A stretch of DNA of 64,000 nucleotides from Flavobacteriales bacterium (GCA_963669295.1 OY769938.1:1890278-1954277), one strand, 5' to 3'; shown: positions 21,350 to 43,382, numbered from the stretch's first letter. Program-made: numbers and translations. The notes: generated by a model not told the origin, from the letters alone.

Positions 21350-21784
21350 ATGGCTTTAGTAAAGTATCGAACCAATGGACTCAACAAAGGATTCAACACC
21401 TTCTTTGATGAGTTCTTCAACAAAGACATTAACCATTTCGTAGGCAACGATTCTATTAAAAAAATGCCTTCTGTAAACATCATTGAAAATGATCGTGGGT
21501 TTACCATCGAGGTTGCTGCCCCCGGGTTCAACAAAGAAGATTTTAATGCCCAGGTAGACGATAACGTGTTAACCATTTCTGCAGAAGTGAAGCAAGAAAA
21601 TGCTGAAAAAGCACACTATAACCGGCGTGAGTTTCATTATGCTTCTTTCAATAGATCATTCAACCTGCCCGACAATGTGCAGGCCAATAAAATTAGTGCG
21701 AGTTACAACAATGGGATTTTAAGTGTAAACATTCCCAAAACAAAGGAACCAGATAAGTTGGTGAAAAAAGTGAAGATTGAGTAA
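21350..21784 (+). CDS. Hsp20/alpha-crystallin small heat-shock protein
   Basis: 144 aa with an alpha-crystallin domain ('F.IEVAAPGF.KEDF', 'NGILSVNIPK'). Confidence 0.93.
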   Translation: MALVKYRTNGLNKGFNTFFDEFFNKDINHFVGNDSIKKMPSVNIIENDRGFTIEVAAPGFNKEDFNAQVDDNVLTISAEVKQENAEKAHYNRREFHYASFNRSFNLPDNVQANKISASYNNGILSVNIPKTKEPDKLVKKVKIE

Positions 21785-21806
21785 GTTTCTTTCATGATGT
21801 GTGTGG

Positions 21807-21837
21807 CAAAGGGGGGAGGAATCCCTCCTTTGTTTTT
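21807..21837 (+). terminator. Probable rho-independent terminator
   Basis: GGAGG-AATC-CCTCC core hairpin with flanking G:U extension, then a T5 run, 23 nt after the hsp20 stop. Confidence 0.5.
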
Positions 21838-21991
21838 AAGGCCTGCAGCCTGTTTCAGCTCTTTTTGCAATTTGCTTAATTAAAGTTATTTTTCTATTAT
21901 TATCCGTGCTTAACACCTAGCACGTAAGGGTAGTAATGGAATATTACTTACTTTTGTCTTTCAATTTTGAAACTTATCTAACAACGTTGAT

Positions 21992-22822
21992 ATGAGCAGT
22001 AAAAAAATTCTGGTTCCTACCGATTTTACTAAGGTTGCGGAATCTGCTATTAATCACGCCCTTGAGATTGCAGAAACCATCAATGGCGAGGTTTTTCTCT
22101 TGCATGTAATTGCCAAGCAAAGCGAAGTGCATGATGCCAAAGCAAAGCTAGAAGAAGAAGCCGAACGAGCAAGAAAAATTAGCAACATCCCTATTCATAC
22201 CACCGTGCGCATCGGAAATATTTTCGACGACATTGGTGATGCCGCAAGTGAACTGGATGCAGAGTTGATTTTGATGGGAACACACGGCATGAAAGGGCTA
22301 CAGTTTATTACTGGAAGCCATGCGTTAAAAGTAATAACACACTCCGTGGTTCCCTTTATTGTTGTGCAAGAAGGAGGTGGGGTTGCCCATGGCTATAACA
22401 ACATTGTTGTTCCCCTGGATTTATCGAAAGAAACAAAGCAAAAGCTAGAGTTAGCAGCTAACATGGCCAAGTATTTTAACTCAAAAATCCATTTGATTAC
22501 CCCGAAAGAAACGGATGAGTTTTTACACAATCAGTTAGACCGCAACCTGCACTACGCTGAAAACTATATGGCCGAGCATGGAATTAACTTTACTGCTACC
22601 ATTGGTGAAGAAAAAAGTGGCAATTTTTACAAAGAAATTATCCGGTTTGCGAAAGATAAAAATGCTGATTTAATAACCATCATGAACCTTGGAGGAGCAA
22701 GTCTTATGGGCATGTTGGGCAGTTCATACGAGCAAAACATGATCACAAATGAAGAAAAAATTCCGGTGATGTGTGTAAATCCTGTTACAACAACAGTAGG
22801 AGGAAGCGTTTTGTTTTCGTAA
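21992..22822 (+). CDS. Universal stress protein, tandem Usp domains
   Basis: 276 aa with 'ILVPTDFT', 'LLHV' and 'GTHGMKG' in domain 1, and a second Usp-like half. Confidence 0.9.
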   Translation: MSSKKILVPTDFTKVAESAINHALEIAETINGEVFLLHVIAKQSEVHDAKAKLEEEAERARKISNIPIHTTVRIGNIFDDIGDAASELDAELILMGTHGMKGLQFITGSHALKVITHSVVPFIVVQEGGGVAHGYNNIVVPLDLSKETKQKLELAANMAKYFNSKIHLITPKETDEFLHNQLDRNLHYAENYMAEHGINFTATIGEEKSGNFYKEIIRFAKDKNADLITIMNLGGASLMGMLGSSYEQNMITNEEKIPVMCVNPVTTTVGGSVLFS

Positions 22823-22854
22823 CTTTGGCAACCGATTGCAAAAACCATATAAGG

Positions 22855-22891
22855 ACCCGTTGTTTCTTTTGTTAGAGCAGCGGGTTTTTTT
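22855..22891 (+). terminator. Rho-independent terminator between convergent genes
   Basis: ACCCGTTG...CAGCGGGT hairpin followed by a T7 run. The T run overlaps the stop codon of the minus-strand cyclase gene. Confidence 0.6.
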
Positions 22892-25800
22892 ATTCATCTA
22901 CATAACTTCCTGTAGCAAGCCGTTGTTTCACTTCTTCAAGGTGTTGCAACTTTTTTTCTTTTCGAGTAGCAATTGCTGTTTTAGTATGGTATCGATGCAT
23001 GGTTAAAAACTTCACCTGAATTTCGTCCCATTGCCGTGTTGATTTAATAACACCAAAATCCATCAACTCATGTTTTAAGTTTTCTGCGATCTCGTGGAAA
23101 TCATCACGACCAAGGTAATCAAGATCCGCATCACAAATAATCTGTTGCAGATGAGAGGTTGGCTCGTGCGGTACTTTTGTTGCATGAATAAGCCCTGCCA
23201 CTATTTCTACCTGTTCGTCTGTATACCCAAAACGAGGAAGTGCTGCACGAGCCATTTCAGCGCCAATGGGCTCATTGTTCTGGTATTGTTTTATGAACCC
23301 TGCATCGTGGTATAGCGCAGCAGTTTTAAGAAGGTACATGTCTTCTCCCTTGATGCCCTCGTGAAAAGCAATTCGCTCTGCGGCCTTACACACGTCCCAT
23401 GTATGATCGATGCAGTGGTAGTATAAACTGGGAGAAAGCCCTTTTTTTAGGGTTTTCATGATGTACTTCTCCGCATTTCGATAGTTAATGTTGCTATACA
23501 ACATCAAATTCACATACTCATGAAATAGGTCATTTGGCTCAACGCCATCTCCGTTAATCGATAACTCAGGTTTAATTCGATCAACAAAATACATGTCTAC
23601 TTCCCCTTTGTTTTTCGCAGGAATCTTACCCCGGTAAGTACATTCAAACAGCGGCTCTATTTCTTTATAGGTTTTCCCCGATACATTTACTTTTCCGGGT
23701 TCACCACTTTGCTCCATTCTACTGGCCACATTTACCGCATCTCCCCAAATGTCGTAGGCAAACCGTTTAATGCCAATTACCCCTGCAATGAGTTCTCCAG
23801 TATGTATTCCCATGCGTATTTCCCAGGGCTCTGACTCCCTCCCCGATTCGGCAACAGCCTTCATGTGTCGTTGTATCTCAAGTCCTGCTAAAACCATGTC
23901 GATAGGGTTACTTTTACTTCGAATAGGCACCCCACCGGCACACATATAGGCATCGCCAATCGTTTTTATCTTTTCGATGTCATATTTCTCAATGATCTCA
24001 TCAAATTCAATGAAGTAGCGATCAAGCTTGGCTACAATTTCTTTCGGACGTAAGGTTTCTGAAATTTTAGTAAATCCTTTTACATCGGTAAACATTACAG
24101 ATACTTTCCTATAATGGCGTGCGGAAGCCTTGCCCTGTGCTTTAAGCTCATCTACCGTTTCAGCAGGTAAAATATTGAGCAGTAATTTCTCTGCCTTCTC
24201 CTTTTCCTCTTCAATAACCAGTTTTTGCGATTCAATCTTTTCTTTCTGATTCAATACCTCCTTGGTTCGCTCTTGCACTAATATTTCCAGTTTTTCTTTT
24301 TGCGCTTTAATGTTTCTAATTCTTGAGCGTACTCCCAGGTATACCACCTCCATGATGGATAGAATAACCAATATTCTAAACCACCAGGTTTCCCAAAAAG
24401 GAGGTGTAACGATAATCCGCAAAGTGGCAGGCTCTTGCGACCATATACCATCGCTGTTAGAAGCGAGTACCTTAAATACATACTCTCCTGGATCCAGGTT
24501 GGTATAATGTGCTTTGCGCTCACTACCTACTACCTGCATCTGCTCTTCGCCCGAGTTCTCGAGCATGTATTTGTATTGGTTTTTGCTGGAGTACGAGTAA
24601 TGCAAGGCTGCAAACTCAATGGTAATGTTGTTTTGGGTATAGTCCAAAACAATTTCTTCTGTTACTGAAATATGTTGCGACAAAGGAGAGTTTTCGCCAA
24701 TGGGAACTGCCCGGTTAAATAATTTAAAGTCAGTAAACACCACCTGAGGGTGGTTTTCGTTGCGACGGATGGAGCGAGGGTTGAAGAGGTTAAAACCATT
24801 AATGCCCCCAAAGTACAAATCACCACTTTGATTTTTGAAATAAGCCCCAATGTTAAACTCATTGCTTTGTAAACCATCGTTTTCAGCATAATTCTTAAAT
24901 GTCTGCGCTTCGATGTTAAACTTCGACAACCCTCGGTTGGTACTCAACCAAAGATTACCATCATCATCGCCCAGCACGCCATACACCACATTGTTCGAAA
25001 GTCCATCTAACTCTGTAAATGCCTCAAAACGACCTGTTTTCGGGTCAAACTTATTTAGCCCTCCACCATAAGTGCCCAACCATAATATTCCATCATCTCC
25101 TTCCCATATCGAAAGAATAGAGTTGTTGTTAATGCTACTGGAGTCTTTTGCATTAGCAACAAATTTTTTGAATATCATTAGTGGTGTATTATCGCCTACA
25201 TCCTTTGCCAGGTTTAGTCCTCCACCATCTGTGCCAATCCAAAGTTTACCCTCTTTGCTTTGATGAATAGAGCGCACAATATTGTTGCCCAATCCAATGC
25301 TCTCGCCCAATCTTCCGGTATCTACAGCATTGTTTTGAAAGAACTCAAATGCAAGGGTATTCATGTTTACCACCCCCAACCCTTCCCTGGTGCCTACCCA
25401 AAGGTTGCCAAGATTATCTTCACACAAGGCATATACTCTATTATTGCTTAACGTACTGGTATCTACCCTATAATCCACCTTGGTAAATTCGGCAGAGGTC
25501 AAGTCTTCACTCACCTGCATTTGAAACAATCCATCAACCATTCCCAACCATATTTGACCTGACTTATCGTGATAGATAGAAAGAACACTGTTGTCGTTTA
25601 AGCTATTAAGATTGTTCGTTTTACGACTGTAATGGTGATATTCATTGTTTGAGCGATCTATGCGTGTAACACCTTGCCGGGTACCCACCCAGATGATTTT
25701 CTCCTCATCTTCAAAGATAGCCCATACATTAGGGTGGTTCAAGCTTGCTGAATCGTTCTCAATAGCATTAATATGGGCAAACCCTTGTTTAACAGGATCA

Positions 25801-26855
25801 AACTTACTGATGCCGTTATTGGTTCCTACCCAAATAGAACCCGACCGATCCTCAACAATGGTAAACACTCGATTATTAATGAGGCTGTACGGCAAGAAGT
25901 CGTTGTGGTTGTATCGATAAAATACCGAGCTGTTTTGACGTATCTCCAGTTTATTTAAGCCACCACCCGGAGAGCCTGCCCAAACGGTTCCTCTGCTGTC
26001 TACAAATACTGCGTCAATCGTATTGTCACTTAAACTATAGGGGTTATTTTCAAGGCTGTAGTATCGTGAGAAAGTATAGGTGCCTTCGTTGATTTCTAAT
26101 TTATTTAGTCCCTCGCTAGTGCCTATCCAAAGGTTTCCCAATAGATCTTCATCGATAGAGTAAACCAAATCATTGCTTATGCTGGTGAAGTTTTCTTCAT
26201 TGTATTTAAACGTAACAAATTCCTGTTTTTCAGGATTAAACAAACACAGTCCTCCTCCCAGAGTACCCACCCATAACCGGTTTCTGGAATCAAGAAACAA
26301 GCTGCGTACATTGTTGTTAGGTAATTTAGCCGGGCGTGTTAATGTTGAATAACGTGTAAACTCTCCTGTGGCAAAATCCATACGATTCAACCCTTTGCTC
26401 TCTGTACCTACCCACAAGCTACTATCTGCTCCTTCACAAATCGACCAAACAAAGCTTTCGCTAATGCTCTTAGGGTTTTTGGGATCGTGTAAATATCGGG
26501 TAAATGTCTCCGTTGTTTTATCAAAGCGGTTAAGGCCAGCCTCCGTGCCCACCCATATTTCTCCACTGGAGCTTTCGTAAATAGTATTGATGTAATTATT
26601 GGAAACTGTTGTTGTGTCTCCAGCTACGCTTTTGTACACCGTAAAAGTATATCCATCAAATTTATTTAGCCCATCCTGTGTGCCAATCCACATAAACCCC
26701 TGTCGGTCTTGTATAATGCAGGTAACAAAGCTTTGAGACAAGCCGTTTCTAATGGAAATGTTCTCAAATTTGATTTCATTCTTTTGCGCCTGAGTCTGCA
26801 TTGATCCAACAATCAAAAACAAAAACATCAGAGTTATTTGTAGAAGCTGTTTCAT
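22890..26855 (-). CDS. Periplasmic double beta-propeller (Reg_prop) / Y_Y_Y sensor fused to a class III adenylate/guanylate cyclase and a C-terminal HD domain
   Basis: 1321 aa with a signal peptide and about 14 'W.GT..GL..F' propeller blades. It has a Y_Y_Y region ('YKYMLEN..', 'PGEYVFKV'), a TM segment (WWFRILVILSIM) and a coiled coil. The cyclase core is 'VSVMFTDVKGFT', 'KTIGDAYM' and 'DIWGDAVNVASRME'; the HD region is 'HTWDV..LYHDAGF..DADLDYLG'. Confidence 0.9.
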   Translation of the reverse strand: MKQLLQITLMFLFLIVGSMQTQAQKNEIKFENISIRNGLSQSFVTCIIQDRQGFMWIGTQDGLNKFDGYTFTVYKSVAGDTTTVSNNYINTIYESSSGEIWVGTEAGLNRFDKTTETFTRYLHDPKNPKSISESFVWSICEGADSSLWVGTESKGLNRMDFATGEFTRYSTLTRPAKLPNNNVRSLFLDSRNRLWVGTLGGGLCLFNPEKQEFVTFKYNEENFTSISNDLVYSIDEDLLGNLWIGTSEGLNKLEINEGTYTFSRYYSLENNPYSLSDNTIDAVFVDSRGTVWAGSPGGGLNKLEIRQNSSVFYRYNHNDFLPYSLINNRVFTIVEDRSGSIWVGTNNGISKFDPVKQGFAHINAIENDSASLNHPNVWAIFEDEEKIIWVGTRQGVTRIDRSNNEYHHYSRKTNNLNSLNDNSVLSIYHDKSGQIWLGMVDGLFQMQVSEDLTSAEFTKVDYRVDTSTLSNNRVYALCEDNLGNLWVGTREGLGVVNMNTLAFEFFQNNAVDTGRLGESIGLGNNIVRSIHQSKEGKLWIGTDGGGLNLAKDVGDNTPLMIFKKFVANAKDSSSINNNSILSIWEGDDGILWLGTYGGGLNKFDPKTGRFEAFTELDGLSNNVVYGVLGDDDGNLWLSTNRGLSKFNIEAQTFKNYAENDGLQSNEFNIGAYFKNQSGDLYFGGINGFNLFNPRSIRRNENHPQVVFTDFKLFNRAVPIGENSPLSQHISVTEEIVLDYTQNNITIEFAALHYSYSSKNQYKYMLENSGEEQMQVVGSERKAHYTNLDPGEYVFKVLASNSDGIWSQEPATLRIIVTPPFWETWWFRILVILSIMEVVYLGVRSRIRNIKAQKEKLEILVQERTKEVLNQKEKIESQKLVIEEEKEKAEKLLLNILPAETVDELKAQGKASARHYRKVSVMFTDVKGFTKISETLRPKEIVAKLDRYFIEFDEIIEKYDIEKIKTIGDAYMCAGGVPIRSKSNPIDMVLAGLEIQRHMKAVAESGRESEPWEIRMGIHTGELIAGVIGIKRFAYDIWGDAVNVASRMEQSGEPGKVNVSGKTYKEIEPLFECTYRGKIPAKNKGEVDMYFVDRIKPELSINGDGVEPNDLFHEYVNLMLYSNINYRNAEKYIMKTLKKGLSPSLYYHCIDHTWDVCKAAERIAFHEGIKGEDMYLLKTAALYHDAGFIKQYQNNEPIGAEMARAALPRFGYTDEQVEIVAGLIHATKVPHEPTSHLQQIICDADLDYLGRDDFHEIAENLKHELMDFGVIKSTRQWDEIQVKFLTMHRYHTKTAIATRKEKKLQHLEEVKQRLATGSYVDE

Positions 26856-26873
26856 GTGCAGCAGCGGTTCCCA

Positions 26874-26912
26874 TTAAAAATGCGAAAGCCTTGATATGAT
26901 TCAAGGCTTCGC
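26874..26912 (-). terminator. Rho-independent terminator of the flotillin operon
   Basis: GCGAAGCCTTGA/TCAAGGCTTTCGC hairpin followed on the minus strand by a T-rich run, 30 nt after the stop at 26942. Confidence 0.65.
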
Positions 26913-26941
26913 AAAGGTATGTAAATTAAGAAAATTGCCGT

Positions 26942-28366
26942 TTATTGCTCCTCTGCTTCAACTGCAGGAGTGTTGTCGTTATCGTCCAACTTGTTTCCTT
27001 TCAAGTATCCAGGCAACTCCATGCCAGCCATGTTAAATACATCTTCCAGTGGTGGAACTGCTTTGTATAGCCCAGATAAGAAGTTGGCTGTAGAGGTTTT
27101 GCCATCTCCTCCTCCACTACCAGAACCATCCCAAACAGTAACCTTGTCGATTTTGATGTTCTTGATGGCTTCTGATTGCATTTTTACCAATTCAGGCAAC
27201 TTGTCGGCAATCAATAACAATACAGCATCTCTTGAGTTTTCGCCTGCTGCTTCTACGATCTTGTCCAAACCTTGTGCTTGCTTGGTCAATACCTCATAGA
27301 TACCTTGTGCTTCGGCTTGTTTCTTATAAAGAATCGCATCTGCATCACCTTTGGCAATACGTCGTATTTGCTCTGCCTCTGCTTCTGCATCGATCTCCAC
27401 TTTTTGTTTGTCGATTTCAGCAGGTACAATAATGTCGGCTTTTTGCGATGCTCTTTCTCTTTCTGCCCTTGCTAATTCTGCTTCTTGCTCTGCAGCATAG
27501 GCTTCTTCCAATGCTTTCGCTGCTTGTACTTTTTCAGCAGCTGTTGCTTTCTTTTCTGCTTCTGCTTCTTTTTCTCTACGATCAGCATTAGAGTTGGCTA
27601 CTGTAATTTTTGCTAAGTTCTCCCCTTCAACCGCTTTCGCATCGGCTTCCGCTACTTGTACACGTTGGTGTTGTACTGCATTGGCCTCTCCAATGGCACC
27701 ATCTCTGTTTTTCTCTGCCACACTCTTCCGTGCATCGTTAATCGCTTTAGCCGCTGCTTCCTTACCTAACGCCACGATATAGCCCGATTCATCCTTGATA
27801 TCGGTAACGTTTACGTTGATGAGTTTCAAGCCTATTTTTTTCAATTCCGCCTCCACGTTTGAAGAAACGTTATCGAGGAATTTATCCCGGTTACTGTTAA
27901 TTTCTTCAATGTCCATGGTTGCTACTACCAACCTCAACTGACCAAAGATGATGTCTTTTGCAAGGTCGTAGATTTCTGCCTGCCCCAGTCCAAGCAAGCG
28001 CTCAGCAGCGTTCGTCATAATGCCTGGCTCGGTTGAAATACCTACTGTAAACCGAGAGGGAACATCTACACGAATGTTTTGCCTACTCAATGCGCTAGTC
28101 AGCTCTACTTCAATGGAAATCGGAGTTAAGTCGAGGTAGTCGTAATCCTGGATGATGGGCCAGATAAATGCTGCACCACCATGAATACACTTGGCTGTTC
28201 TTCCCTGTCCTCCTGTGCTTCCTACCTTACCATACACTACTAAGATTCTGTCGGATGGACATCTCTTATAGCGTTTAAACAGCGAGTATATCAGCACAAA
28301 AACAAACAATACTGCTGCCGCGATGATAATAATAATCAACTGCGGAGTATCTGCTAGTAAAATCAT
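26942..28366 (-). CDS. Flotillin-family SPFH protein (YqiK/FloT-like)
   Basis: 474 aa with an N-terminal TM segment, an SPFH domain and a long Ala/Glu-rich coiled coil ('AEAEKKATAAEKVQAAKALEEAYAAEQEAELA'). Confidence 0.92.
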   Translation of the reverse strand: MILLADTPQLIIIIIAAAVLFVFVLIYSLFKRYKRCPSDRILVVYGKVGSTGGQGRTAKCIHGGAAFIWPIIQDYDYLDLTPISIEVELTSALSRQNIRVDVPSRFTVGISTEPGIMTNAAERLLGLGQAEIYDLAKDIIFGQLRLVVATMDIEEINSNRDKFLDNVSSNVEAELKKIGLKLINVNVTDIKDESGYIVALGKEAAAKAINDARKSVAEKNRDGAIGEANAVQHQRVQVAEADAKAVEGENLAKITVANSNADRREKEAEAEKKATAAEKVQAAKALEEAYAAEQEAELARAERERASQKADIIVPAEIDKQKVEIDAEAEAEQIRRIAKGDADAILYKKQAEAQGIYEVLTKQAQGLDKIVEAAGENSRDAVLLLIADKLPELVKMQSEAIKNIKIDKVTVWDGSGSGGGDGKTSTANFLSGLYKAVPPLEDVFNMAGMELPGYLKGNKLDDNDNTPAVEAEEQ

Positions 28367-28444
28367 TGCTTTTTCTATTTAGTTTAAGTTGTTACTAATG
28401 TTATACCTGACCGACGGTGTTAACCTTTGTTTATGTTGGTAGCG

Positions 28445-29035
28445 CTATTTTTTATTGCTACTTCTGGTTACCAACAGTATGCTATCGTTAATCACTTCCA
28501 ATACCGAAACAATGGTGGGGTTCTTAATGGGTTCGTCGTCATCGGTCATTGCTTCCAATTCTCTTAACGAGCCTTGAATTTTAATGTGCACTTTGCCAAA
28601 CCCTTCACGATTAGCCGGAATAGTAAGGTATACTTCACCCACACCACCAATAGCATTATTCATATTAAGTGTACCGCTATCGGTTAATTTACTCATGAAA
28701 AAGAATATGCTTGCCATAATCGCCATCATTGACAATCCAGCAATTACCGAAACAATGATGGTCATGGCAGTGCTCAACCCCCCATCAATACATGCCAATC
28801 CTGTCCACGCAAAAATGGTGAAGAAGCCAATGAGGTTCTTGATGGTAAAAAACTGAAACCCTATTCCTGCGTCTGCATCTACATCTGCATCAGCTCCACC
28901 AGCATCACCATCTACATCACCCATGATGAAGGTCATGATCATTTGGCCGATAAAGATGACTGAAGAAGGGATGGCAAATAGCCAATAGATGTGTTCTAAG
29001 GTTGACATTTCTGCCCACCATGCCCCTAAGTCCAT
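28445..29035 (-). CDS. NfeD/YqiJ-like membrane protein (flotillin partner)
   Basis: 196 aa with TM helices, an acidic 'GDVDGDAGGADADVDADAG' loop and a C-terminal OB-like NfeD domain ('GVGEVYLTIP..GFGKVHIKIQGSLRELEA'). Confidence 0.75.
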   Translation of the reverse strand: MDLGAWWAEMSTLEHIYWLFAIPSSVIFIGQMIMTFIMGDVDGDAGGADADVDADAGIGFQFFTIKNLIGFFTIFAWTGLACIDGGLSTAMTIIVSVIAGLSMMAIMASIFFFMSKLTDSGTLNMNNAIGGVGEVYLTIPANREGFGKVHIKIQGSLRELEAMTDDDEPIKNPTIVSVLEVINDSILLVTRSSNKK

Positions 29036-29080
29036 AATTCTCTTAAATTTAGTTTACGAAGTCAATTTAAGAAATTTTGG

Positions 29081-30883
29081 TTACACTTTTACCCCGATCA
29101 CTAAAATATCATCTACCTGCTCAAAATTCCCTTTCCACTGTTCTATAGTGCGGTTCAAAATGTCTTTTTGCTCAGACATGGTTTTGCTTTGGCAGCCTAG
29201 TAACATATCGCGAAACTGCTTGTACATGAACTTTTTGCCTTTTGGCCCTCCAAATTGATCGGCATAACCATCAGAAAAGATGTATACTTGATCGCCAGAT
29301 TGCAGCGGTATAGAGTGGTTTGTATACTTTTTATCGAGGTCATCAAAACCACCAATAGCAAACTTATCACCCTTGGTTTGCATCAACTCTCCATTGCGAA
29401 TAATATATAATGGATTATAAGCTCCAGCATATTCCAGCACCTTTGTGTTAAGGTCGAGCGAGCACAATGCCAAATCCATTCCATCACGCACATTGCTTTC
29501 TTCCGGATCCTGGTTGAGTGATTCCGAAGCCAGCGCATTTAAATCATCAAGGATTTGTGCTGGCTGCGACAAGTTGTGTTCCCGCACTGCTTGCTTCAAC
29601 CCATTGTATCCTACCAAACTCATGAATGCTCCTGGCACCCCGTGTCCAGTACAGTCTACCGCAGCAAACAACACTTTGCCCTCCGCCTCATCAAACCAGT
29701 AAAAATCACCAGACACAATATCTTTGGGCTTAAACAACACAAACGATTCTGGCAACAAATCTTTGATGTATTTATCAGAAGGAAGGATAGATTCCTGCAA
29801 ACGCTTTGCATATCGTATACTATCCGTCAAATCTTTGTAGAGCTCTTCTAGTTTTTGCCTTTGTTTTACAACCTCTTCTGTACGTTCAATCACCTTTTGC
29901 TCCAATATCCGCTCATTTTCTGCCAGATCATCACGCATTTTTAACAATGCATGACCAAGGGTATCTTCTTCGCTCAACGGTTCATAATGATAATCGAAAT
30001 TACCAGAACCTACCTCTTTAGAAAAGTCGGTGGTTTGTTTTAAACCATGCACCAAATTATTCAATGCACCTGACATCTCTCCAATTTCATCGTTGCGCTG
30101 CTTGATGGTTTCTTTTGGAAAAACACCTCGCCCTAACGAAAGCAATACACGTTTGAGTTGATGAATAGGTCGCACAATGGAGCGCACAGTAAAGATGGCA
30201 ATCAAGACTCCGCCAACACCAAGAGCCATACCCAGGTAACGCAACAAAAATTGTAATAAATCAAACGAGGAAATCATTTGCTGGCTCACCTCATGTTGAT
30301 TCATCTTCTGTAGGTTAATCAACTCATCCAGCTTAAATGTGACTTTGCTGGTTTGCTTATCGATGTCTCCCCCTTCTTCCACCATAGGGATTACAGTAAA
30401 CATCACCATGGGGTCTTTATAGCTTTCAAAAGAGTTGATTTGCTCTTTTATAAAGTCGTGAGTGGCAAACAATTCTTTAATATCGTCGAAGATAATCGCT
30501 TTCTTTTCCAACTCATTGTCTGACCAGGCAGGAGACAATGTGTTAATGCGGCTTCTTAGCTCAGGCCACACCTCCGTTTGTAATTGAATCAACGTTCTCT
30601 TTTCTTGCGCATCTTCCCGGCTTTCAATGCCCACCCAGTTGGTAATTAAGGTTCGTGTTCTTTCAACAAGTAGCTTGAGGTCCTCCAATGCATCTACAGA
30701 TGGAGTATATACTTTGTTAATTTCATCGTTTGCCGTACGGCTTTCATTCAGGGTATTGTTAGTGAGATAAAATACCACTAACATTAACAGGATAAATAAA
30801 CCAAATCCTGTTCCTATTTTTCTTCCGATGGTAAACCTGAACTTCATAGCTGCTGTAGAGGCAAATTTACTATTCTTCCCCAC
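29081..30883 (-). CDS. Membrane sensor with periplasmic helical domain, HAMP, coiled coil and PP2C/SpoIIE phosphatase
   Basis: 600 aa with two TM segments flanking a helical region of about 170 aa, and a HAMP domain ('RPIHQLKRVLLSLGRG..DEIGEMSGALNNLV'). The phosphatase motifs are 'SGDFYW', 'DCTGHGVPGA' and 'SDGYADQFGG'. An alternative start at 30847 (MKFRF) would remove the 14-nt overlap with the upstream gene. Confidence 0.88.
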   Translation of the reverse strand: MGKNSKFASTAAMKFRFTIGRKIGTGFGLFILLMLVVFYLTNNTLNESRTANDEINKVYTPSVDALEDLKLLVERTRTLITNWVGIESREDAQEKRTLIQLQTEVWPELRSRINTLSPAWSDNELEKKAIIFDDIKELFATHDFIKEQINSFESYKDPMVMFTVIPMVEEGGDIDKQTSKVTFKLDELINLQKMNQHEVSQQMISSFDLLQFLLRYLGMALGVGGVLIAIFTVRSIVRPIHQLKRVLLSLGRGVFPKETIKQRNDEIGEMSGALNNLVHGLKQTTDFSKEVGSGNFDYHYEPLSEEDTLGHALLKMRDDLAENERILEQKVIERTEEVVKQRQKLEELYKDLTDSIRYAKRLQESILPSDKYIKDLLPESFVLFKPKDIVSGDFYWFDEAEGKVLFAAVDCTGHGVPGAFMSLVGYNGLKQAVREHNLSQPAQILDDLNALASESLNQDPEESNVRDGMDLALCSLDLNTKVLEYAGAYNPLYIIRNGELMQTKGDKFAIGGFDDLDKKYTNHSIPLQSGDQVYIFSDGYADQFGGPKGKKFMYKQFRDMLLGCQSKTMSEQKDILNRTIEQWKGNFEQVDDILVIGVKV

Positions 30884-31787
30884 ATATTTTTTTCAACAAC
30901 TCTTTGTAGTGGTTGGATTTTTCTATTTCGTTCAAACCAAAGTAAATACCAGAAAGCCCAAAGATGGTTTCACAACGAGTAGGGTTGAGTTCATATGCCT
31001 TTAACATATACGGTTCTGCTTTTCGAAACAGCTCAGCACATTCATCCTGTGTTTGGTTAAGAATCAATAACCCCGCATCTGGATCAAGGCTTTTAATTTT
31101 GTTTACCCCTTTATTGTAATACAAAATGGCTGTGTTATAATTGGCATTATAGTCATTCGAATCAAGCCCAAGTACTACTCCATACGCCTCTAGAGCTTCA
31201 TCATAAAAACGTGCATTAGCCTCTCGGTCAGCGTCATAAATTACTGAATATACTGTAGAAGCTAGCGCATTATAGTATTCTAAATCTTTTTGAAAGAAAT
31301 TATACCCCTGTTGTATGATTTCCATGGTGGCTTTGTAGCGCGCATAACTCTTCAACGACTGCTCGTAGCTAACAGTATCAAGAAGATTTACAGCATCATT
31401 GAAATAGGTATCGGCCAGGTACCTAATCGTTTTCTTGTTGTTCTCTAAATGTTCTTGCTCCACATCAACAACCATTGATTTTACAAAAGCATTAACGGCT
31501 TCTTCCCGCGATGGCGATTGTGGGTTGCCAGCTTCACGCTCCTTAAAAATAGCTTTGTAGATAAAGCCCCTGAAATGCCACGCTTGGGCATGTAGCATTT
31601 TTTTGTCTCTGCTTAGTCCGGCTGTATCGTCCGGGATCAATTCAGTGGCTTGATCAATCAATAACTTTGCGCTATCCAGGTCGTTGTTTTGATAGTGATA
31701 AATTGCCTGAATAGCCAACTTCCCCTGGCCAAAGGATGCAACTGAAACGATCAGAAAGACTACGAATATGTAAAGTTTCTTCTGCAT
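30870..31787 (-). CDS. Secreted TPR-like protein
   Basis: 305 aa with a signal peptide (VSVASFGQG) and TPR-like helical pairs ('ALEAYGVVLGLDSNDYNANYNTAILYYNKG'). Confidence 0.6.
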   Translation of the reverse strand: MQKKLYIFVVFLIVSVASFGQGKLAIQAIYHYQNNDLDSAKLLIDQATELIPDDTAGLSRDKKMLHAQAWHFRGFIYKAIFKEREAGNPQSPSREEAVNAFVKSMVVDVEQEHLENNKKTIRYLADTYFNDAVNLLDTVSYEQSLKSYARYKATMEIIQQGYNFFQKDLEYYNALASTVYSVIYDADREANARFYDEALEAYGVVLGLDSNDYNANYNTAILYYNKGVNKIKSLDPDAGLLILNQTQDECAELFRKAEPYMLKAYELNPTRCETIFGLSGIYFGLNEIEKSNHYKELLKKICGEE

Positions 31788-31808
31788 ATAATGATGATCA
31801 TTGCTTTT

Positions 31809-32345
31809 TCATTCTATTCTTTTAGCAGCAAGGTCGCCTAGCGTTTTGCCGATGATTAATTTTCTATTGTTTGCTTCTGTTTTATTGAGTTCGTATGCTA
31901 GTTTATTGGATCTAATAAAGAAGTTAATACTCGCCCCCTCATGAATCAACCCTTCCTTTTCTGTAACGATTAGGGTACTCTTCCCTTTTAATCTACTTAC
32001 CAATTGAGGTAATTGGTTGCTTTTACTATTGTCAAGGAACAACACATGGCATTTATTTACATCAGAAGCACTTGCGTATTTCTTTATTTCTATTGGCTGA
32101 CTCCCTATCCTTTTAGAGGAATAAAGCTTTACCAACTCATTGTATACGTTTGTGCCTCCAATGACTCCTATTACAAAATTCCCTTGCTTATATGTTGCCG
32201 GCCAATCGGCAAATTTTGCAAAGTTGTAGATGTATTGGGCTTTTAGTTTTGAGTTAATGTCGTAACTCGTATTCCTACCCTGCCCGAACGTGGTTCCCGC
32301 TGAGAAGAGAGAGAGAATAAACAGTATGGTTAATAACCGTTTCAT
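31809..32345 (-). CDS. YfiR/DUF4154-family periplasmic protein
   Basis: 178 aa with a signal peptide. 'LKAQYIYNFAKFADWP', 'CHVLFL', 'TLIVTE' and 'GASINF..NKLAYELN' follow the DUF4154 consensus. Confidence 0.85.
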   Translation of the reverse strand: MKRLLTILFILSLFSAGTTFGQGRNTSYDINSKLKAQYIYNFAKFADWPATYKQGNFVIGVIGGTNVYNELVKLYSSKRIGSQPIEIKKYASASDVNKCHVLFLDNSKSNQLPQLVSRLKGKSTLIVTEKEGLIHEGASINFFIRSNKLAYELNKTEANNRKLIIGKTLGDLAAKRIE

Positions 32346-32543
32346 GATTCTTAAAGCCCTAGTAAACAGGTGGGGTTAGTGATGCAATATAGCATAAATA
32401 ATTTTAATAAAATCCCCTGTTTTATAAGGGTAAACGTTACTCTTTAGCCCTTCTCATATCTAAAACTATACCATTTTTTGGTTGCGGCACATTTCTTTTA
32501 TTTCAATGAGGTGGTTTTGATGACTAATGCGCTCAAATAAGGT

Positions 32544-33998
32544 TTACTTTTTGAACCCCTCCAGCTTTTTGTCATTAAGAAAGTCGTAATGCGTTAGTTT
32601 ACGAAGTTCGTAAAAACTTACCCAATAACTTCTCAATGTTTCCAGGTAGCTACGTTTTGAGCTGTCTTTTTCTTGTAGTGCAATGTTGAGGTCCGAAACA
32701 TTTATTCGCCCAATGAGGTAACGCTGTTTGGCTATTTCATATCGTTTTTGTGCTACTAAATCCGCTTTTGCTGCTATTTTCACTTGCTCTTTTAGTAGAT
32801 TGAACTGCAATGCTTTTACAAACACTTCTTGCTCTAATTCCAGTTTCCGCTGTTGCACCGTGTAATTTACTACTTCCCGGTTAGCTACAGCTTGCTTTAT
32901 GTTTGCTCTTGAGACTCCCCAATTAAACACCGGCACTTGAATGCCCAATACCAGTTGCTGTTGGTCTTGCGGATTAGTGTACACTCCATTAAAGTCGGCT
33001 GCACTATTGGTTAGCCCATAGGTTGCAAAAAGATTCATGTTTAAATTATTATCCCCTTTTGCTTGAGCCACATCTCTCTCGGCCTCTATTAATTGTCGGT
33101 TTAATGTAATGTGCTGCGACCTGCTTTGTGATGCTTCTGTTACTGCCTTATCAGCATTCACTTCTAGCTCAGGAATACTGTAATTAACGTTTAACTCCAA
33201 ATTGGTGTTTTCACTAATTCCAAGATAAGTTTTCAACCGAATTTCGTTGGTTTGCACCGATACCCTTGCTTGTGCAGTAGCAATTTGCGAATTCAACAAG
33301 GTAAGCTCTACCTGCAACAATTCATTTTCCGCAATTTTACCTATGCCATACCGCCCTTTTGATATCTTGTAAATGGTATCGCTATTTGCTTCATTTAGCT
33401 CCGCCAACTCCAAATCTATTTGTGCAGAAAGAAGGTTAAAAAATAAATTGGTAGACTCAATTGCAATATCTTCTACATCCTCTACCGATCGTTCCTGTGC
33501 CTCCTGGTACAATAAGGGCTCTACTTTCTTCTGCCATTTGAAGGAATTGAACCCAAACAGTGTTTGGCGCAGCCCAATGTTTACAGGGGTCGACATGTAT
33601 GAAATGCTTGGATTATCTCCAAGTAAATCGATACGGCTTAAATCAGAATTCACAAACAACTCTCCTCCCGTTAAGCCTATATTTTGTCGCAACGACAGGT
33701 TGGTAGTTGACAATGCTCGTCGCTGTTCCACAAAAGACTCGGTTCCATCGGGTAGCGTAATCCTTGAAATAGATCGATTAAGATCAGGCAATGTAGCATC
33801 AAAGTTCAATGATGGTAAGAAGGATCGCTCAAATGAGAAGAAACGCCAATAGCTGTTATCAAATTTATTTTGCACCAACTTGCTTTGCGCTGATTGCGTT
33901 TGTGCCATATTGATGACCTGCTCTAAGCTCAACCTGGTGGTTTGTGCATGCACGCTTGTACACCACAGCAATAATAATATAGCCCATCGTTTACTCAT
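32544..33998 (-). CDS. TolC-family outer-membrane efflux protein
   Basis: 484 aa with a signal peptide and two OEP-type repeats. It overlaps the upstream permease gene by 8 nt. Confidence 0.88.
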   Translation of the reverse strand: MSKRWAILLLLWCTSVHAQTTRLSLEQVINMAQTQSAQSKLVQNKFDNSYWRFFSFERSFLPSLNFDATLPDLNRSISRITLPDGTESFVEQRRALSTTNLSLRQNIGLTGGELFVNSDLSRIDLLGDNPSISYMSTPVNIGLRQTLFGFNSFKWQKKVEPLLYQEAQERSVEDVEDIAIESTNLFFNLLSAQIDLELAELNEANSDTIYKISKGRYGIGKIAENELLQVELTLLNSQIATAQARVSVQTNEIRLKTYLGISENTNLELNVNYSIPELEVNADKAVTEASQSRSQHITLNRQLIEAERDVAQAKGDNNLNMNLFATYGLTNSAADFNGVYTNPQDQQQLVLGIQVPVFNWGVSRANIKQAVANREVVNYTVQQRKLELEQEVFVKALQFNLLKEQVKIAAKADLVAQKRYEIAKQRYLIGRINVSDLNIALQEKDSSKRSYLETLRSYWVSFYELRKLTHYDFLNDKKLEGFKK

Positions 33999-35322
33999 AC
34001 CTTAACGAATTAATCGGGTCTTGCTCCGAAGCTCTTTTAGCTGGAGTGTAGCCAAAGATAACCCCAACACTTGCTGAAACAACAAATGAAATAATGATCG
34101 GCATCGCACTAATAACTGTGGGACTGTTAAAAATGTAAGGCAATAACAAGGAGGTCACCACCCCAACAATAATACCTATTACACCACCTGCAAGGCTAAT
34201 TAGCAACGCCTCATACATGAACTGTTGTTGAATGTCTTTTTTTGTGGCTCCCATCGACAGTCGAACTCCTATTTCTTTGATTCGCTCCAATACAGAGGCC
34301 AACATAATGTTCATTATACCAATACCTCCAACCAATAGCGAAATGCTGGCAATAGCAGCCAGCAAAGCATTGAACCGCTCCTTGGTGTCCTGGCTTTGCT
34401 TCAATTGATGTTCTGGAATCTGAATAGAATAGTTTTCCGCGCCCATATGTCTCCGCAATAACTGCCGGTTCAACACTTCAAAAGTGGCGAGCACTTTATT
34501 GGTTTCTCTTACCTGCACCACGATCTTGTCTAACTGATTGTTGTTAACCGGAGGCTTTGGGGTGTTTTCTTCTTCATCGTCAGAAAATGCCGCGCTTTCA
34601 ATGGTTTTGTTGGTTACTAAGGTTCTGTTCTTATAGCGTAACAATACTGTTTGTATAGGCGCATAAACCTCATTATTGTACGTGTTTACTCCCATCGACT
34701 CAATAGAAGTGCCTTCAATCTCCATCGGTTTAATTACACCTATTACTTTAAACCAAATGTTGTTGCACTTAACGCGTTTTCCAATCGGGTTTCCTTCCGG
34801 AAAAAGCCGCCCAGCAATTTTAGCTCCTAAAATGCAAACCGGTTTCGCTTGCTCTATGTGTTGCCAACTGAACATGCTTCCTTCTGATAGTTGAATGTTA
34901 TACACTTTGAAATACTCGGGGGTAACACCTATGAGTTTAGAAGCATAATTTTTTCCAGTGGCAATGGCATTAACGCGATACCCTACCTCTGGGCAAACAG
35001 CCTCTACCGTGGGTATTTTCATGATACTCCTGGCATCAGCCAGTGTTAGGCCTGGAGCATATTTTTTTGTTTCTTTTCCCTGGCCACTACCCGATCCATC
35101 TCCTTCATCTTCGGGCATTAATCCTTCAATAATAATGTTGTTGGATCCAACTAATTTTATTTGCTCAAGGATTTCTTTTTTGGAACCATTGCCAATTGCA
35201 AGCATGATAATTACTGCAGCTACCCCAAAGATGATACCCAGCCCTGTAAGGATCGACCGTGTTTTATTCGACCAAATTGCTTCTATGGCAATTAACAGGT
35301 TGTACCAGCTTTTATCAAACAT
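33991..35322 (-). CDS. MacB-type ABC transporter permease (MacB_PCD plus FtsX), no ATPase domain
   Basis: 443 aa with an N-terminal TM segment, a large periplasmic domain and three C-terminal TM segments carrying the FtsX motif ('GGIGIMNIMLASVLERIKEIGVR'). Confidence 0.9.
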   Translation of the reverse strand: MFDKSWYNLLIAIEAIWSNKTRSILTGLGIIFGVAAVIIMLAIGNGSKKEILEQIKLVGSNNIIIEGLMPEDEGDGSGSGQGKETKKYAPGLTLADARSIMKIPTVEAVCPEVGYRVNAIATGKNYASKLIGVTPEYFKVYNIQLSEGSMFSWQHIEQAKPVCILGAKIAGRLFPEGNPIGKRVKCNNIWFKVIGVIKPMEIEGTSIESMGVNTYNNEVYAPIQTVLLRYKNRTLVTNKTIESAAFSDDEEENTPKPPVNNNQLDKIVVQVRETNKVLATFEVLNRQLLRRHMGAENYSIQIPEHQLKQSQDTKERFNALLAAIASISLLVGGIGIMNIMLASVLERIKEIGVRLSMGATKKDIQQQFMYEALLISLAGGVIGIIVGVVTSLLLPYIFNSPTVISAMPIIISFVVSASVGVIFGYTPAKRASEQDPINSLRYE

Positions 35323-35325
35323 GTG

Positions 35326-36567
35326 TTACTTGATCCGTTGAAGGCTATAACTATCAGGATCTTCGGGTTGAGATAGGTAAACAATATCTCCTGCGTTAAT
35401 GCCTTTTTCTACAATAATGTAATCTTCGCTTGAAGCTCCTGTTTTTACTTCCTTTTTTACAATGCTCATTCCATCCTCCAAAAAAACATAGCTCAACGTG
35501 TCGTTGCTAAATATCGTTTCAACAGGAACACTAATCACATCTTCATATTGTGCCACTAAAATTTCATTGCCAGTAGTCATGGCGGGTTTCAAAATCGTAT
35601 CTGTCTTATTGAGCTTGATCAATACTTCAAATACCTTAGCATCAGAGTTGGGCAATTGTTCTCCAATATTGGCCACCTCGATAATGGTTCCTTCATATTT
35701 TTTGTCGGGAAATGCATCAATGCTAATGCTTACCTTTTGATCAGATTTTATCTTACTAATGTCAATTTCATTCACGTAAGTTTTGGAGTACATCTCTGAA
35801 AGGTCGGGCAATGTTGCTACCACAGGATTCCAGGCACTAATTTGAGAGCCCACTTGAATCTTTTTACCATCCCATGTACGTTGATAAATTACCATGCCAC
35901 CCTTAGGAGCCGTCACAGTAAACTTACCCAACAATTCTGCTATTTCATCATATCGTCGCTGTTGCTGCTCTAACATTGCTGTTACCTCTTGCATCTTTGC
36001 AATCGCTTGTTTTCGTTTCAATTGATAATTTTCGAGCGTTTGGTTATAAGTACGCTCTGTTTTCTCCAGATCAATCTCTGCCTGGCGAATCGTAGCAGGG
36101 GGCTCATATTTTGATTGCTCCAACACCAGCTTTTTCTCTTCCAAAGAATACTTCATGTTAATCAATTCATCGCGGGCATTGCGAAGCTCTAATGCTGTAT
36201 CAAGCTTTGTTGTGGTGTATTGTGAGTTGATTTTTTCCAACTCTGTTTGCACGTCTTTTAACTTTGTTGCTGCCTGAGTGCGATCTAGTGTAGCCACGTA
36301 ATCGCCCTCGTTTACAATTGTCCCTTCAGGTATAAGGTCGGTAATCTGCACTTGCCAAACACCTACTTTCCTTAACTCAGAAGGTGCTTGTATGTTTTCT
36401 GATTCTTTGGCCTCTAGCTCACCCGTAACGGCAACATAGATATCGAATGCCCCTCTTTTTACCTCTACCTTTATCGGATCCGATAACTCTTCGTCAGAGC
36501 CAAAAAGAAAAACAGATAATAGCAGTGCAATAACTCCAACGGCAATGTATACGTATTTTTTACTCAT
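35326..36567 (-). CDS. Efflux periplasmic adaptor (HlyD/MacA family)
   Basis: 413 aa with a signal anchor, a biotinyl-lipoyl-like region, a long coiled-coil hairpin and a beta-barrel. Confidence 0.88.
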   Translation of the reverse strand: MSKKYVYIAVGVIALLLSVFLFGSDEELSDPIKVEVKRGAFDIYVAVTGELEAKESENIQAPSELRKVGVWQVQITDLIPEGTIVNEGDYVATLDRTQAATKLKDVQTELEKINSQYTTTKLDTALELRNARDELINMKYSLEEKKLVLEQSKYEPPATIRQAEIDLEKTERTYNQTLENYQLKRKQAIAKMQEVTAMLEQQQRRYDEIAELLGKFTVTAPKGGMVIYQRTWDGKKIQVGSQISAWNPVVATLPDLSEMYSKTYVNEIDISKIKSDQKVSISIDAFPDKKYEGTIIEVANIGEQLPNSDAKVFEVLIKLNKTDTILKPAMTTGNEILVAQYEDVISVPVETIFSNDTLSYVFLEDGMSIVKKEVKTGASSEDYIIVEKGINAGDIVYLSQPEDPDSYSLQRIK

Positions 36568-36631
36568 TTGCTATTGATAACGTTGCAATTATAATCGTGG
36601 TATTAAAGGTATTTATTTATTTGATGCAGTA

Positions 36632-37609
36632 CTAAAAATTAACAATTGTCCAATACACTCCCCTTACAACTTCCGCCATCTTCTCATAATCTAAGGTGTT
36701 CGCTTTATCACTTTTTTCATGATAGTTTTTGTTTCGGTAAAATGCTGTATCGGTAATCATTACAGCTCTATAGCCATACTTCCAATAATTGAGGTGATCC
36801 GAAAAATCAATCCCTGGTATAGAAGCAGGGGCACTAATTGATTTTACTTGTACCTGACAACCTGCTTTCATGTTTTTCTTCACATTTCGGATGATGCTGC
36901 GCTGTCCCAACTTTCCAACTACTGCAATGTAATTCCCGGTTGTGGGGTAAAACAATTTTAATAACCCAATAGGGTATTCCTGTGATTTTTTTGCTTCATT
37001 GAAGTAACCAATCATTTCTAAACAAATCATTCCTTTTACCGGCACCTTGTTATCGTACAATGATTTAGCATGCACGGCACTACCCATGTTTTCGGTTCTA
37101 AAATAAGGGGGTTCTTCCAATGTGTAGGCCACCAGGTCAACCCGGTACTTCAAAGTAGGGTTTTGATGCTTTAACACTCGAGCAAGCTCTAGTAACCCTG
37201 CCGTTCCGCTACCATTATCGTCTGCTCCATCTTGTTCATCACACACATCATAGTGTGCGCCTATAATTAACCGTTCAGCATCTTGCGGCCCAAAAGAACA
37301 AATGATGTTTTTGTATTCATTTCCTCCAACGCTAAACTTTTGTTCTTCTGCCTCTACCCCAAGTGCTTCAAACTCAGTTTTGATGTATTGTGCTGCTGCA
37401 TTTAGTGAAGCAAGGTTCTGATAGTTCCTTGGCTTTGGTGTGCCCACAAGGGCTGCAACATCTTGCTTTAATCGTTCAGCACTTACAGGAATTGCAGTTG
37501 CAGACTCATTGTACGAAGTAAAAAAAACAGGAGTTGTAACAGCATAAATAGCCGTTACCACCAATACGAAAAGAAACAGAAATATTGATCTGGTTAGCTT
37601 TTTTAACAT
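36632..37609 (-). CDS. M28-family metallopeptidase
   Basis: 325 aa with 'GAHYDV', 'GADDNGSGTAGLLELAR' and 'EEPP..GS'. Confidence 0.85.
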   Translation of the reverse strand: MLKKLTRSIFLFLFVLVVTAIYAVTTPVFFTSYNESATAIPVSAERLKQDVAALVGTPKPRNYQNLASLNAAAQYIKTEFEALGVEAEEQKFSVGGNEYKNIICSFGPQDAERLIIGAHYDVCDEQDGADDNGSGTAGLLELARVLKHQNPTLKYRVDLVAYTLEEPPYFRTENMGSAVHAKSLYDNKVPVKGMICLEMIGYFNEAKKSQEYPIGLLKLFYPTTGNYIAVVGKLGQRSIIRNVKKNMKAGCQVQVKSISAPASIPGIDFSDHLNYWKYGYRAVMITDTAFYRNKNYHEKSDKANTLDYEKMAEVVRGVYWTIVNF

Positions 37610-37627
37610 AAAAATGTCTACATCGTG

Positions 37628-38155
37628 CTATTCGGCAGCACCGCTAGAGTTATTGGCGGTGGCTTCAGCGGCAAATGTTTCCAGATCGCGATCGAAAAAG
37701 TAAAGTCCTCCTTTGTCTTCACCAATCATGTTGAGCTTATCCATGATTGTTCGAGCCAGCGCTTCTTCTTCTATTTGCTCAGAAACATACCATTGCATAA
37801 AGTTGTGCGTAGTATAGTCTTTTTCTTGTAGGCACACATCCACAACATCGTTGATTTGCTGTGTTACCATCATTTCATGCTCCAACAGCTTCTTAAATAC
37901 ATCATTTACTCCTCCAAAGTCCACTGGAGGTTGCTCCAACGCTGTGATGACCGCATGGCCCCCCCGCTCATTAATGAACTTCACCAACTTCAGCATATGC
38001 ATCCGTTCTTCATCGGAGTGCATATATAAGAAGTTCGCAGTACCTGTTAACCCTTGCGTTTCTGCCCAGGATGCCATGGCCAAATAAAATTGCGATGACA
38101 GGGCCTCTACTTCTACTTGTTTATTGAGTGCTGCTTCTATTCTTTCTGTTAACAT
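37628..38155 (-). CDS. ftnA: Non-heme ferritin
   Basis: 175 aa with ferroxidase-centre residues in 'EALSSQFYLAMASW' and 'HSDEERMHMLKL'. Confidence 0.93.
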   Translation of the reverse strand: MLTERIEAALNKQVEVEALSSQFYLAMASWAETQGLTGTANFLYMHSDEERMHMLKLVKFINERGGHAVITALEQPPVDFGGVNDVFKKLLEHEMMVTQQINDVVDVCLQEKDYTTHNFMQWYVSEQIEEEALARTIMDKLNMIGEDKGGLYFFDRDLETFAAEATANNSSGAAE

Positions 38156-40264: not shown

Positions 40265-40293
40265 CCGGATATTTTGGATGGTTAGAAGCAAAG

Positions 40294-40323
40294 AAAAGGG
40301 GCGACGGGATGTCGCCCCTTTTT
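40294..40323. terminator. Bidirectional rho-independent terminator
   Basis: AAAA-GGGGCGAC-GGGAT-GTCGCCCC-TTTTT between convergent genes. Confidence 0.8.
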
Positions 40324-40354
40324 GATGTTAGTTATTTTGTTTATTGACTTAGAC

Positions 40355-41815: not shown

Positions 41816-41910
41816 AATTACATTTTGAACGCGTAAGAAATTTAACATTTTATCGTAACTTTATCAAAGTTTATTGGTTAAATTGTGTAAAAATTATTTT
41901 TAGCCATATT

Positions 41911-42597: not shown

Positions 42598-42643
42598 TTT
42601 TCCTGTTAGCAGCAGCTTTAGAGTTTATTAAAACTTCTAGAAT

Positions 42644-42669
42644 AACCCCCTTTAAAAAGGGGGTTTTTT
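42644..42669. terminator. Rho-independent terminator between convergent genes
   Basis: AACCCCCTT-TAA-AAGGGGGTT followed by TTTT. Confidence 0.75.
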
Positions 42670-42675
42670 GTTCTA

Positions 42676-43380: not shown

Positions 43381-43382
43381 TG

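Follow-up and report, generated by a model that had tools for sequence, protein, structure and literature searches.

A YfiR-like protein encoded with a sensor phosphatase in Bacteroidota, and a probably independent NfeD-flotillin cassette beside it

In Proteobacteria, YfiR is the periplasmic brake of one diguanylate cyclase; Bacteroidota make little use of cyclic di-GMP. The described systems of this type, YfiBNR and HmsCDE, have a gene for a small exported DUF4154 protein directly upstream of that for a two-transmembrane (two-TM) HAMP enzyme, and their operons also encode another envelope protein (PMC2837407, PMC3375315, PMC4655355). Here we analyze computationally a related arrangement in a stretch of 64,000 nucleotides from a Flavobacteriales bacterium (GCA_963669295.1 OY769938.1:1890278-1954277), the whole of which is called the window. 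An earlier note, made from the sequence alone, had proposed that five adjacent genes of the window form one envelope-signalling unit, encoding a YfiR-like protein, a tetratricopeptide repeat (TPR) protein, a HAMP-PP2C phosphatase, NfeD/YqiJ and flotillin. Our analysis favors, with a probability of about 60%, two adjacent but independent units: a trio of DUF4154, TPR and sensor phosphatase genes (30847-32345, with the phosphatase reaching to 29081) and an NfeD2-flotillin pair (26942-29035).

Like the E. coli locus with which it was compared, the trio has a DUF4154 gene upstream of a gene for a two-TM HAMP inner-membrane enzyme. The output domain of this enzyme is a PP2C phosphatase rather than a GGDEF cyclase, and the third protein is a soluble TPR protein encoded between the other two, not a downstream OmpA/Pal-like lipoprotein. 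In the literature searched, only YfiBNR and HmsCDE were found as described DUF4154 systems, and no description links YfiR or DUF4154 with SpoIIE, PP2C or RsbU. The combination of a YfiR-fold protein with a PP2C sensor is thus apparently undescribed; the earlier note likewise knew of no example of its wider arrangement with flotillin.

The trio is strictly conserved. Phosphatase loci were collected by a genome scan with a phosphatase alignment (80 loci) and by individual look-ups of homologues, and were scored with family hidden Markov models. As orthologous we count the 28 loci that encode a full-length orthologue, at 35-62% identity, and have upstream DNA present. The metagenome-assembled genomes (MAGs) concerned are labelled as Flavobacteriales, Crocinitomicaceae, Vicingaceae, Weeksellaceae, Cytophagales and Sphingobacteriaceae. 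A DUF4154 gene is present in all 28 orthologous loci and lies directly upstream on the same strand in 27; a TPR gene likewise stands between the DUF4154 and phosphatase genes in 27 of the 28. The junctions within the trio often overlap or abut (e.g. in loci L003, L009, L017, L020 and L023). By contrast, none of 57 loci whose phosphatases share a similar PP2C half but carry other N-terminal sensors encodes a DUF4154 protein (Fisher p = 4e-23). The occurrence of the accessory genes therefore goes with the sensor domain rather than with the output domain. Given this strict, sensor-specific co-occurrence, a conserved unit of DUF4154, TPR protein and two-TM HAMP-PP2C sensor is well supported, and the DUF4154-SpoIIE linkage that had been put forward for a gene-neighborhood test is borne out.

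The surroundings of the trio are more variable. Among 23 loci, ferritin is encoded upstream in 12, a convergent Usp gene downstream in eight and the class III cyclase treated below in six; no other family is universal. The ferritin gene, in some cases accompanied by one for an M28 peptidase, adjoins DUF4154 on its upstream side in several relatives (L001, L003, L084-L086, L168, L170), down to 37% phosphatase identity, and the Usp gene is directly convergent on the phosphatase gene in L015, L022 and L025. The ferritin neighborhood is a hint that the trio may be connected with iron or oxidative stress.

Individual loci show further variation. L015 has two tandem TPR paralogues in the module (8135-9992). 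In L024, which holds the most distant orthologue (35% identity), the DUF4154 gene (7231-7692) lies on the opposite strand, 2.3 kb away, and there is no TPR gene. Many of the paralogue loci carry tandem arrays of up to six sensor phosphatases (L063, L065, L077).

In Bacteroidota, a YfiR-fold protein is thus strictly linked to a sensor whose fold is not that of YfiN and to another output, PP2C. If the trio works as proposed below, DUF4154 would be a portable periplasmic regulator rather than one specific to YfiN, and there would be a first handle on the inputs to the many orphan SpoIIE-type phosphatases of Bacteroidota. The trio is abundant in environmental Flavobacteriales-like genomes and lies among stress genes, so that a role as an input for envelope stress or general stress is a reasonable possibility.

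The first protein of the trio is, as judged from profile comparisons, a remote homologue of YfiR. It matches Pfam PF13689 with E = 5e-35 over positions 2-142 of 143. Scores against the narrower NCBIfam models are below their cut-offs: 106.5 bits against 125 for NF053591 (TOL_0243 YfiR-like) and 25.8 bits against 85 for NF053586 (YfiR proper), a level that does not indicate YfiR orthology. A phmmer search of the PDB with the single protein gives no match and a family profile is needed, for which YfiR provides all six top matches (E = 0.035). Alignment of the family with E. coli YfiR by hhalign gives 93.5% probability and E = 2e-7 over 131 columns, at 15% identity. The label YfiR-like in the earlier note is therefore upheld by Pfam, PDB profile and hhalign alike, for a remote homologue only. 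The signal peptide ends in ...FGQG, in line with the Q-rule that describes substrates of signal peptidase I in Bacteroidetes (PMC5837995).

The signal peptide of the TPR protein, like that of the DUF4154 protein, ends just before a Gln and so also follows the Q-rule. This residue, Gln21, is nearly invariant in the family, and the protein has no lipobox Cys. All of its Pfam TPR matches are below the Pfam cut-off. Compared with the PDB, the family profile matches consensus TPR proteins, with a canonical repeat at about residues 184-216. Together with the signal peptide, this agrees with the earlier description of a secreted TPR protein.

The third protein is a two-TM HAMP sensor with a PP2C/SpoIIE output, an assignment made in the earlier note on which Pfam, structure prediction and fold comparison now concur. 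Pfam recognizes HAMP (E = 4e-10) and SpoIIE (E = 2e-21) and no GGDEF domain; at the N-terminus there are weak matches to 4HB_MCP_1/TarH. The AlphaFold model (predicted local distance difference test score, pLDDT, 81) consists of TM1, a periplasmic four-helix bundle with helices of pLDDT >90, TM2, HAMP, a helical linker and a PP2C domain. The motifs typical of the PP2C family (DCTGHG, DGMD, SDG, DD) are invariant in the phosphatase family, and with them D398 (in DCTGHG), D455/D458, D526 and D579/D580; the protein thus combines the PP2C fold with its metal-binding Asp residues.

Among known phosphatases, the closest in the catalytic domain is SiaA of the SiaABCD system of Pseudomonas aeruginosa, also a membrane-anchored HAMP-PP2C protein. 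Its PP2C domain (6k4e) is the best PDB fold match (E = 1e-18, TM-score 0.88, 33% identity); others include RssB, SpoIIE and RsbU. SiaA also gives the best NCBIfam match (NF038263, 249 bits against a cut-off of 700), in which residues 278-599 align with model positions 335-656 only, and the N-terminal sensor half of the trio phosphatase does not match the model. To our knowledge, the sia operon encodes no DUF4154 or TPR partners. Conversely, no gene like siaB, siaC or siaD lies beside the trio, and none recurs in the 23 loci. SiaA dephosphorylates a switch protein (PMC7647112). RsbU and SpoIIE share with the trio phosphatase the PP2C subfamily fold and a regulatory helical linker before the catalytic domain (PMC8080068, PMC12143880). 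Its input, however, would come from a periplasmic sensor and exported accessory proteins, not from cytoplasmic RsbT or a stressosome.

The gene content, the domain and fold assignments and the co-occurrence statistics are observations; for the binding partners of the trio, the direction of regulation, the substrate and co-transcription, we infer the following scheme. The DUF4154 and TPR proteins would bind the periplasmic four-helix bundle, or each other, and thereby set the signalling state of the HAMP domain. The model for this is YfiR, which keeps YfiN off until YfiR is itself sequestered; the TPR protein may have the accessory or sequestering role that YfiB has in YfiBNR. When active, the PP2C domain would dephosphorylate a phospho-Ser/Thr switch protein of the STAS or SiaC type, encoded elsewhere, and so lead to a stress response. 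The neighborhood is enriched in ferritin, Usp and Hsp20 genes, joined in this clade by a class III cyclase with predicted periplasmic propellers. NfeD2 and flotillin would have been inserted once between phosphatase and cyclase, in the ancestor of one sub-clade, and inherited since, such that neither unit would need the other.

Several observations weigh against this scheme, above all against the analogy with YfiR. The periplasmic four-helix bundle has no similarity to the periplasmic domain of DgcN/YfiN that hhalign could detect, and the disulfide cysteines of YfiR have no conserved counterparts in the DUF4154 family of the trio. There is also no YfiB equivalent: the third gene encodes the TPR protein, and no other family occurs in all loci. 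YfiR-style repression is thus an analogy, and the accessory proteins could equally be activating co-sensors that present ligands. Finally, no STAS, SiaC or RsbW protein was recognized among the open reading frames (ORFs) of the window, of which the neighboring ones were scanned with Pfam, nor is there a recurrent one in the loci; L001 has a single RsbW-like gene close to the module. The host genome measures 5.9 Mb, and the cognate STAS protein and switch kinase could be encoded elsewhere in it.

As summarized in Table 1, the five genes were found in the order and spacing proposed. All are on the minus strand, with intergenic gaps of 21, 22 (or -14), 45 and 78 bp; 86 bp separate flotillin from the next gene downstream, and the upstream gap, previously put at roughly 200 bp, measures 198 bp. 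The alternative value of -14 applies to the phosphatase ORF with an overlapping GTG start (29081-30883). We place the start at the ATG at 30847, because the orthologues start at MxFRFTIGRK. The common strand of the five genes is uninformative, since they belong to a run of 11 minus-strand genes (22890-38155).

Table 1. Coordinates of the trio, the adjoining cassette and flanking features, counted from the first nucleotide of the window.
Feature	Position	Strand	Basis or remark
DUF4154 (YfiR/HmsC-like) exported protein, 178 aa	31809..32345	-	Pfam, profile, hhalign; first gene of trio
TPR-like exported protein, 305 aa	30870..31787	-	Weak Pfam TPR, family profile; second gene of trio
Sensor phosphatase, inner-membrane, 588 aa	29081..30847	-	Pfam HAMP and SpoIIE, AlphaFold, SiaA-like PP2C
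NfeD-family membrane protein (YuaF/NfeD2 type), 196 aa	28445..29035	-	AlphaFold and PDB fold matches; flotillin partner
Flotillin (SPFH2/Band_7), 474 aa	26942..28366	-	Pfam Band_7, YqiK alignment
Reg_prop/Y_Y_Y/class III cyclase/HD sensor, 1321 aa	22890..26855	-	Pfam; outside the unit proposed earlier
Gap 5' of DUF4154 gene, 198 bp	32346..32543	-	Junction with lineage-specific efflux-gene block
Terminator-like hairpin and T run 3' of flotillin	26875..26910	-	Hairpin at 26885-26910; 10-bp stem, 4 GC pairs, tail CGCATTTTTA

The fourth and fifth genes form a pair of a known kind. The fifth product matches Pfam Band_7 with E = 1e-28 and NCBIfam FloT with 176 bits, below the cut-off of the latter, and can be aligned from end to end with E. 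coli YqiK (26% identity, E = 2e-20). The Band_7 match and the full-length YqiK alignment identify it as the flotillin that had been proposed, of the SPFH/Band_7 kind with an N-terminal membrane anchor. The fourth has no match in Pfam or NCBIfam. In its AlphaFold model (30 homologues, pLDDT 80), three helices at the N-terminus are combined with a beta domain at the C-terminus, and the top four PDB matches of the model by Foldseek are all NfeD proteins: YuaF 2k14 (E = 1e-5), 3cp0, YbbJ 8z5g and 3wwv. At the sequence level, the match to YuaF is only marginal (E = 0.29); homologues carry the name NfeD family in NCBI and UniRef. The gene-4 family has no similarity to E. coli YqiJ detectable by hhalign. 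Of the earlier label NfeD/YqiJ, the first half accordingly stands on the fold matches and the second is unproven.

NfeD and flotillin are an autonomous two-gene cassette. Scanning metagenomes with the flotillin yielded 80 loci, and counts were made over 81. The NfeD gene lies directly upstream of flotillin in 77 of the 81, the remaining four ending at a contig edge; elsewhere in these loci there is no other conserved neighbor, and genes of the phosphatase module occur in none. Outside the module, the NfeD homologues closest to that of the window (63% identity) are in unrelated contexts, with sucAB and tyrS or with queA and a VIT-domain gene, compared with 66-68% identity to the NfeD protein of the window for those inside it. 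The SPFH2-NfeD2 operon is known to co-evolve and to be transferred as a pair (PMC2636767). As in YuaF-FloT and YqiJ-YqiK, the NfeD-type membrane gene is directly upstream of the flotillin gene, and nothing essential distinguishes the pair of the window from these conserved and mobile pairs (PMC2636767), except that in this clade it is located inside a signalling cluster and that gene 4 is too divergent for the Pfam NfeD model.

Most orthologous modules lack this cassette. It is absent from all 15 species-representative orthologue loci with enough downstream DNA, and likewise from five further loci. The closest relatives without it are L084, L085 and L086, with a phosphatase identity of 61-62%. 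In L168, L169, L172 and L173, the order is DUF4154, TPR, phosphatase, NfeD, flotillin and cyclase, followed by convergent Usp and Hsp20 genes; L170 and L171 are truncated and show part of the order from DUF4154 to cyclase. The possibility that the pair is unique to the window (0 of 83 loci; missing in the three closest relatives) is ruled out by the first four of these. The right-hand flanks of L172 and L084 are alike (Usp, Hsp20, hydrolase, TetR), so the difference between the two loci is a clean presence or absence of the two genes. More generally, the cassette-less loci L084, L085, L086, L004 and L016 are otherwise collinear with L172 and L168, with the same ferritin, Usp, Hsp20, hydrolase and TetR genes. 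L169 encodes an additional 192-aa Band_7 fragment before flotillin (4208-6278).

In a neighbor-joining tree of the phosphatases, the flotillin-bearing lineages and the window are in one clade. One old insertion, inherited since and possibly followed by later loss, is the simplest account of the cassette. Two observations sit less well with it. L084 and L086, which do not have the cassette, branch inside the flotillin clade, so that either a loss took place or the topology is unreliable. In addition, the position of the cassette has been kept over about 40% protein divergence in at least four lineages, with no terminator before it, and selection for co-expression is therefore possible. The whole region, including genes on the opposite strand, is however collinear within the clade, and the kept order is therefore weak evidence for function. 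The flotillin link is in our reading a clade-restricted juxtaposition of an autonomous cassette. It serves as a caution that adjacency conserved in one collinear clade is not evidence for a functional unit.

The model of the earlier note, in which all five genes are one operon and NfeD-flotillin microdomains scaffold a YfiR-controlled phosphatase, is unlikely when judged on this evidence. It draws support from the single strand, from the 45- and 78-bp gaps and from the transcription signals. There is no terminator-like site anywhere between the DUF4154 gene and flotillin, hence none from phosphatase to flotillin, and a terminator-like hairpin follows only after flotillin, where one had been predicted. 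Under the two-unit reading, too, read-through from the module promoter into NfeD-flotillin, across the 45-bp gap, probably occurs in the window. The five-gene order recurs, fully or in part, in the six relatives named above, and in L172 an analogous, stronger hairpin is likewise 3' of flotillin. Moreover, the phosphatase, NfeD and flotillin are all inner-membrane proteins with cytoplasmic domains. Against the model, the cassette is missing from the 15 species-representative and five further loci, including the closest collinear relatives, and the module from all 81 flotillin loci. Collinearity extends to opposite-strand genes, such that the kept order is not a sign of selection, and the pattern fits a single gain. 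The integral place of flotillin in the unit, suggested earlier, is therefore not upheld, and the SpoIIE-flotillin linkage is confined to the one clade. Functional coupling of the phosphatase to flotillin is possible but not supported.

The class III cyclase on the other side of the cassette is the ancestral downstream partner of the phosphatase. Besides a signal peptide and a TM segment, this protein contains Reg_prop propellers, Y_Y_Y, a class III adenylate/guanylate cyclase domain and, at the C-terminus, an HD domain. Its periplasmic architecture resembles that of Bacteroides hybrid two-component sensors, but its output is a cyclic nucleotide. It is conceivable that in this clade DUF4154, TPR, phosphatase and cyclase genes are one signalling operon, in which the phosphatase would control the cyclase or act together with it, and which the flotillin cassette merely interrupts. 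The cyclase gene is directly 3' of the phosphatase gene in L004, L016, L084, L085 (with a 4-nt stop/start overlap) and L086. It is still found 3' of flotillin in the window, L168, L169, L172 and L173; in L168, the gap is 35 bp, with no hairpin or terminator in it. Such a larger unit is nonetheless doubtful. Most orthologous loci have no cyclase near the module (L001, L003, L007-L010, L015, L017-L025, L028), no known mechanism joins PP2C to a class III cyclase of this type, and in the window a hairpin and a -7-like box separate flotillin from the cyclase. This Bacteroidota -7-like box, TACCTTTG, lies within 26875-26941 (minus strand), 64 nt ahead of the ATG of the cyclase gene, and borders the hairpin on its 5' side. 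Besides ending the flotillin transcript, the hairpin could thus belong to the 5' leader of the cyclase.

A combination of these ideas is more ambitious still. The trio might be a widespread envelope-stress pathway of Bacteroidota, in which the YfiR-fold protein gates a partner switch based on a Ser/Thr phosphatase in place of cyclic di-GMP synthesis. In one Flavobacteriales-like clade, NfeD-flotillin would have been brought onto the same transcript, and the sensor phosphatase, perhaps with the adjacent cyclase, would function within flotillin microdomains. We regard this as a rather improbable extension of the two-unit reading. Least probable of all is that DUF4154 and TPR are simply co-expressed envelope proteins that do not regulate the phosphatase and whose adjacency is inherited synteny: the DUF4154 protein is only remotely related to YfiR, the sensor domain is unlike that of YfiN and L024 departs from the arrangement, yet the trio stays together at identities as low as about 37% and in MAGs with different order labels, whereas its other neighbors all change, the start/stop overlaps suggest translational coupling, and the association of DUF4154 is absolute with the four-helix-bundle sensor and nil with the paralogues.

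Signals upstream of the trio are less distinct. The gap 5' of the DUF4154 gene contains a weak terminator-like hairpin (32414-32430) and no perfect TAnnTTTG box. A sigma-70 promoter scan gave no enrichment over shuffled sequences, and an Rfam search of 22500-33000 no match.

The window also differs from its relatives in what surrounds the module. Between the ferritin-M28 pair and the DUF4154 gene lies a block encoding HlyD, a MacB-type permease (MacB_PCD and FtsX) and TolC (32544-36567, minus strand), which is missing in relatives and has no ABC ATPase gene adjoining it. The ferritin and M28 peptidase genes themselves (36632-38155, minus strand) are displaced by 4 kb from the DUF4154 gene. Their discovery there led us to reject an inversion of the window relative to L085; the window is collinear with its relatives, with insertions. 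On the other side, tandem-Usp and Hsp20 genes (21350-22822, plus strand) converge on the cyclase gene and are kept in L084, L086, L168, L172 and L173. Another phosphatase of the SpoIIE family is encoded 2 kb past the cyclase (18927-21032, minus strand); it has six TPR_12 repeats and a signal peptide, and L168 has a TPR_12/SpoIIE phosphatase in the equivalent relative position. At 55685-63999 there are genes for a putative PAS-rich sensor kinase of very large size, cut off by the end of the window, and a 250-aa regulator, together with a 715-aa ORF. They seem to be the counterparts of three genes next to ferritin in L001 and L085, for a PAS kinase, a LytTR regulator and RNase R; in the window, about 17 kb of additional genes (38408-55589) separate them from ferritin.

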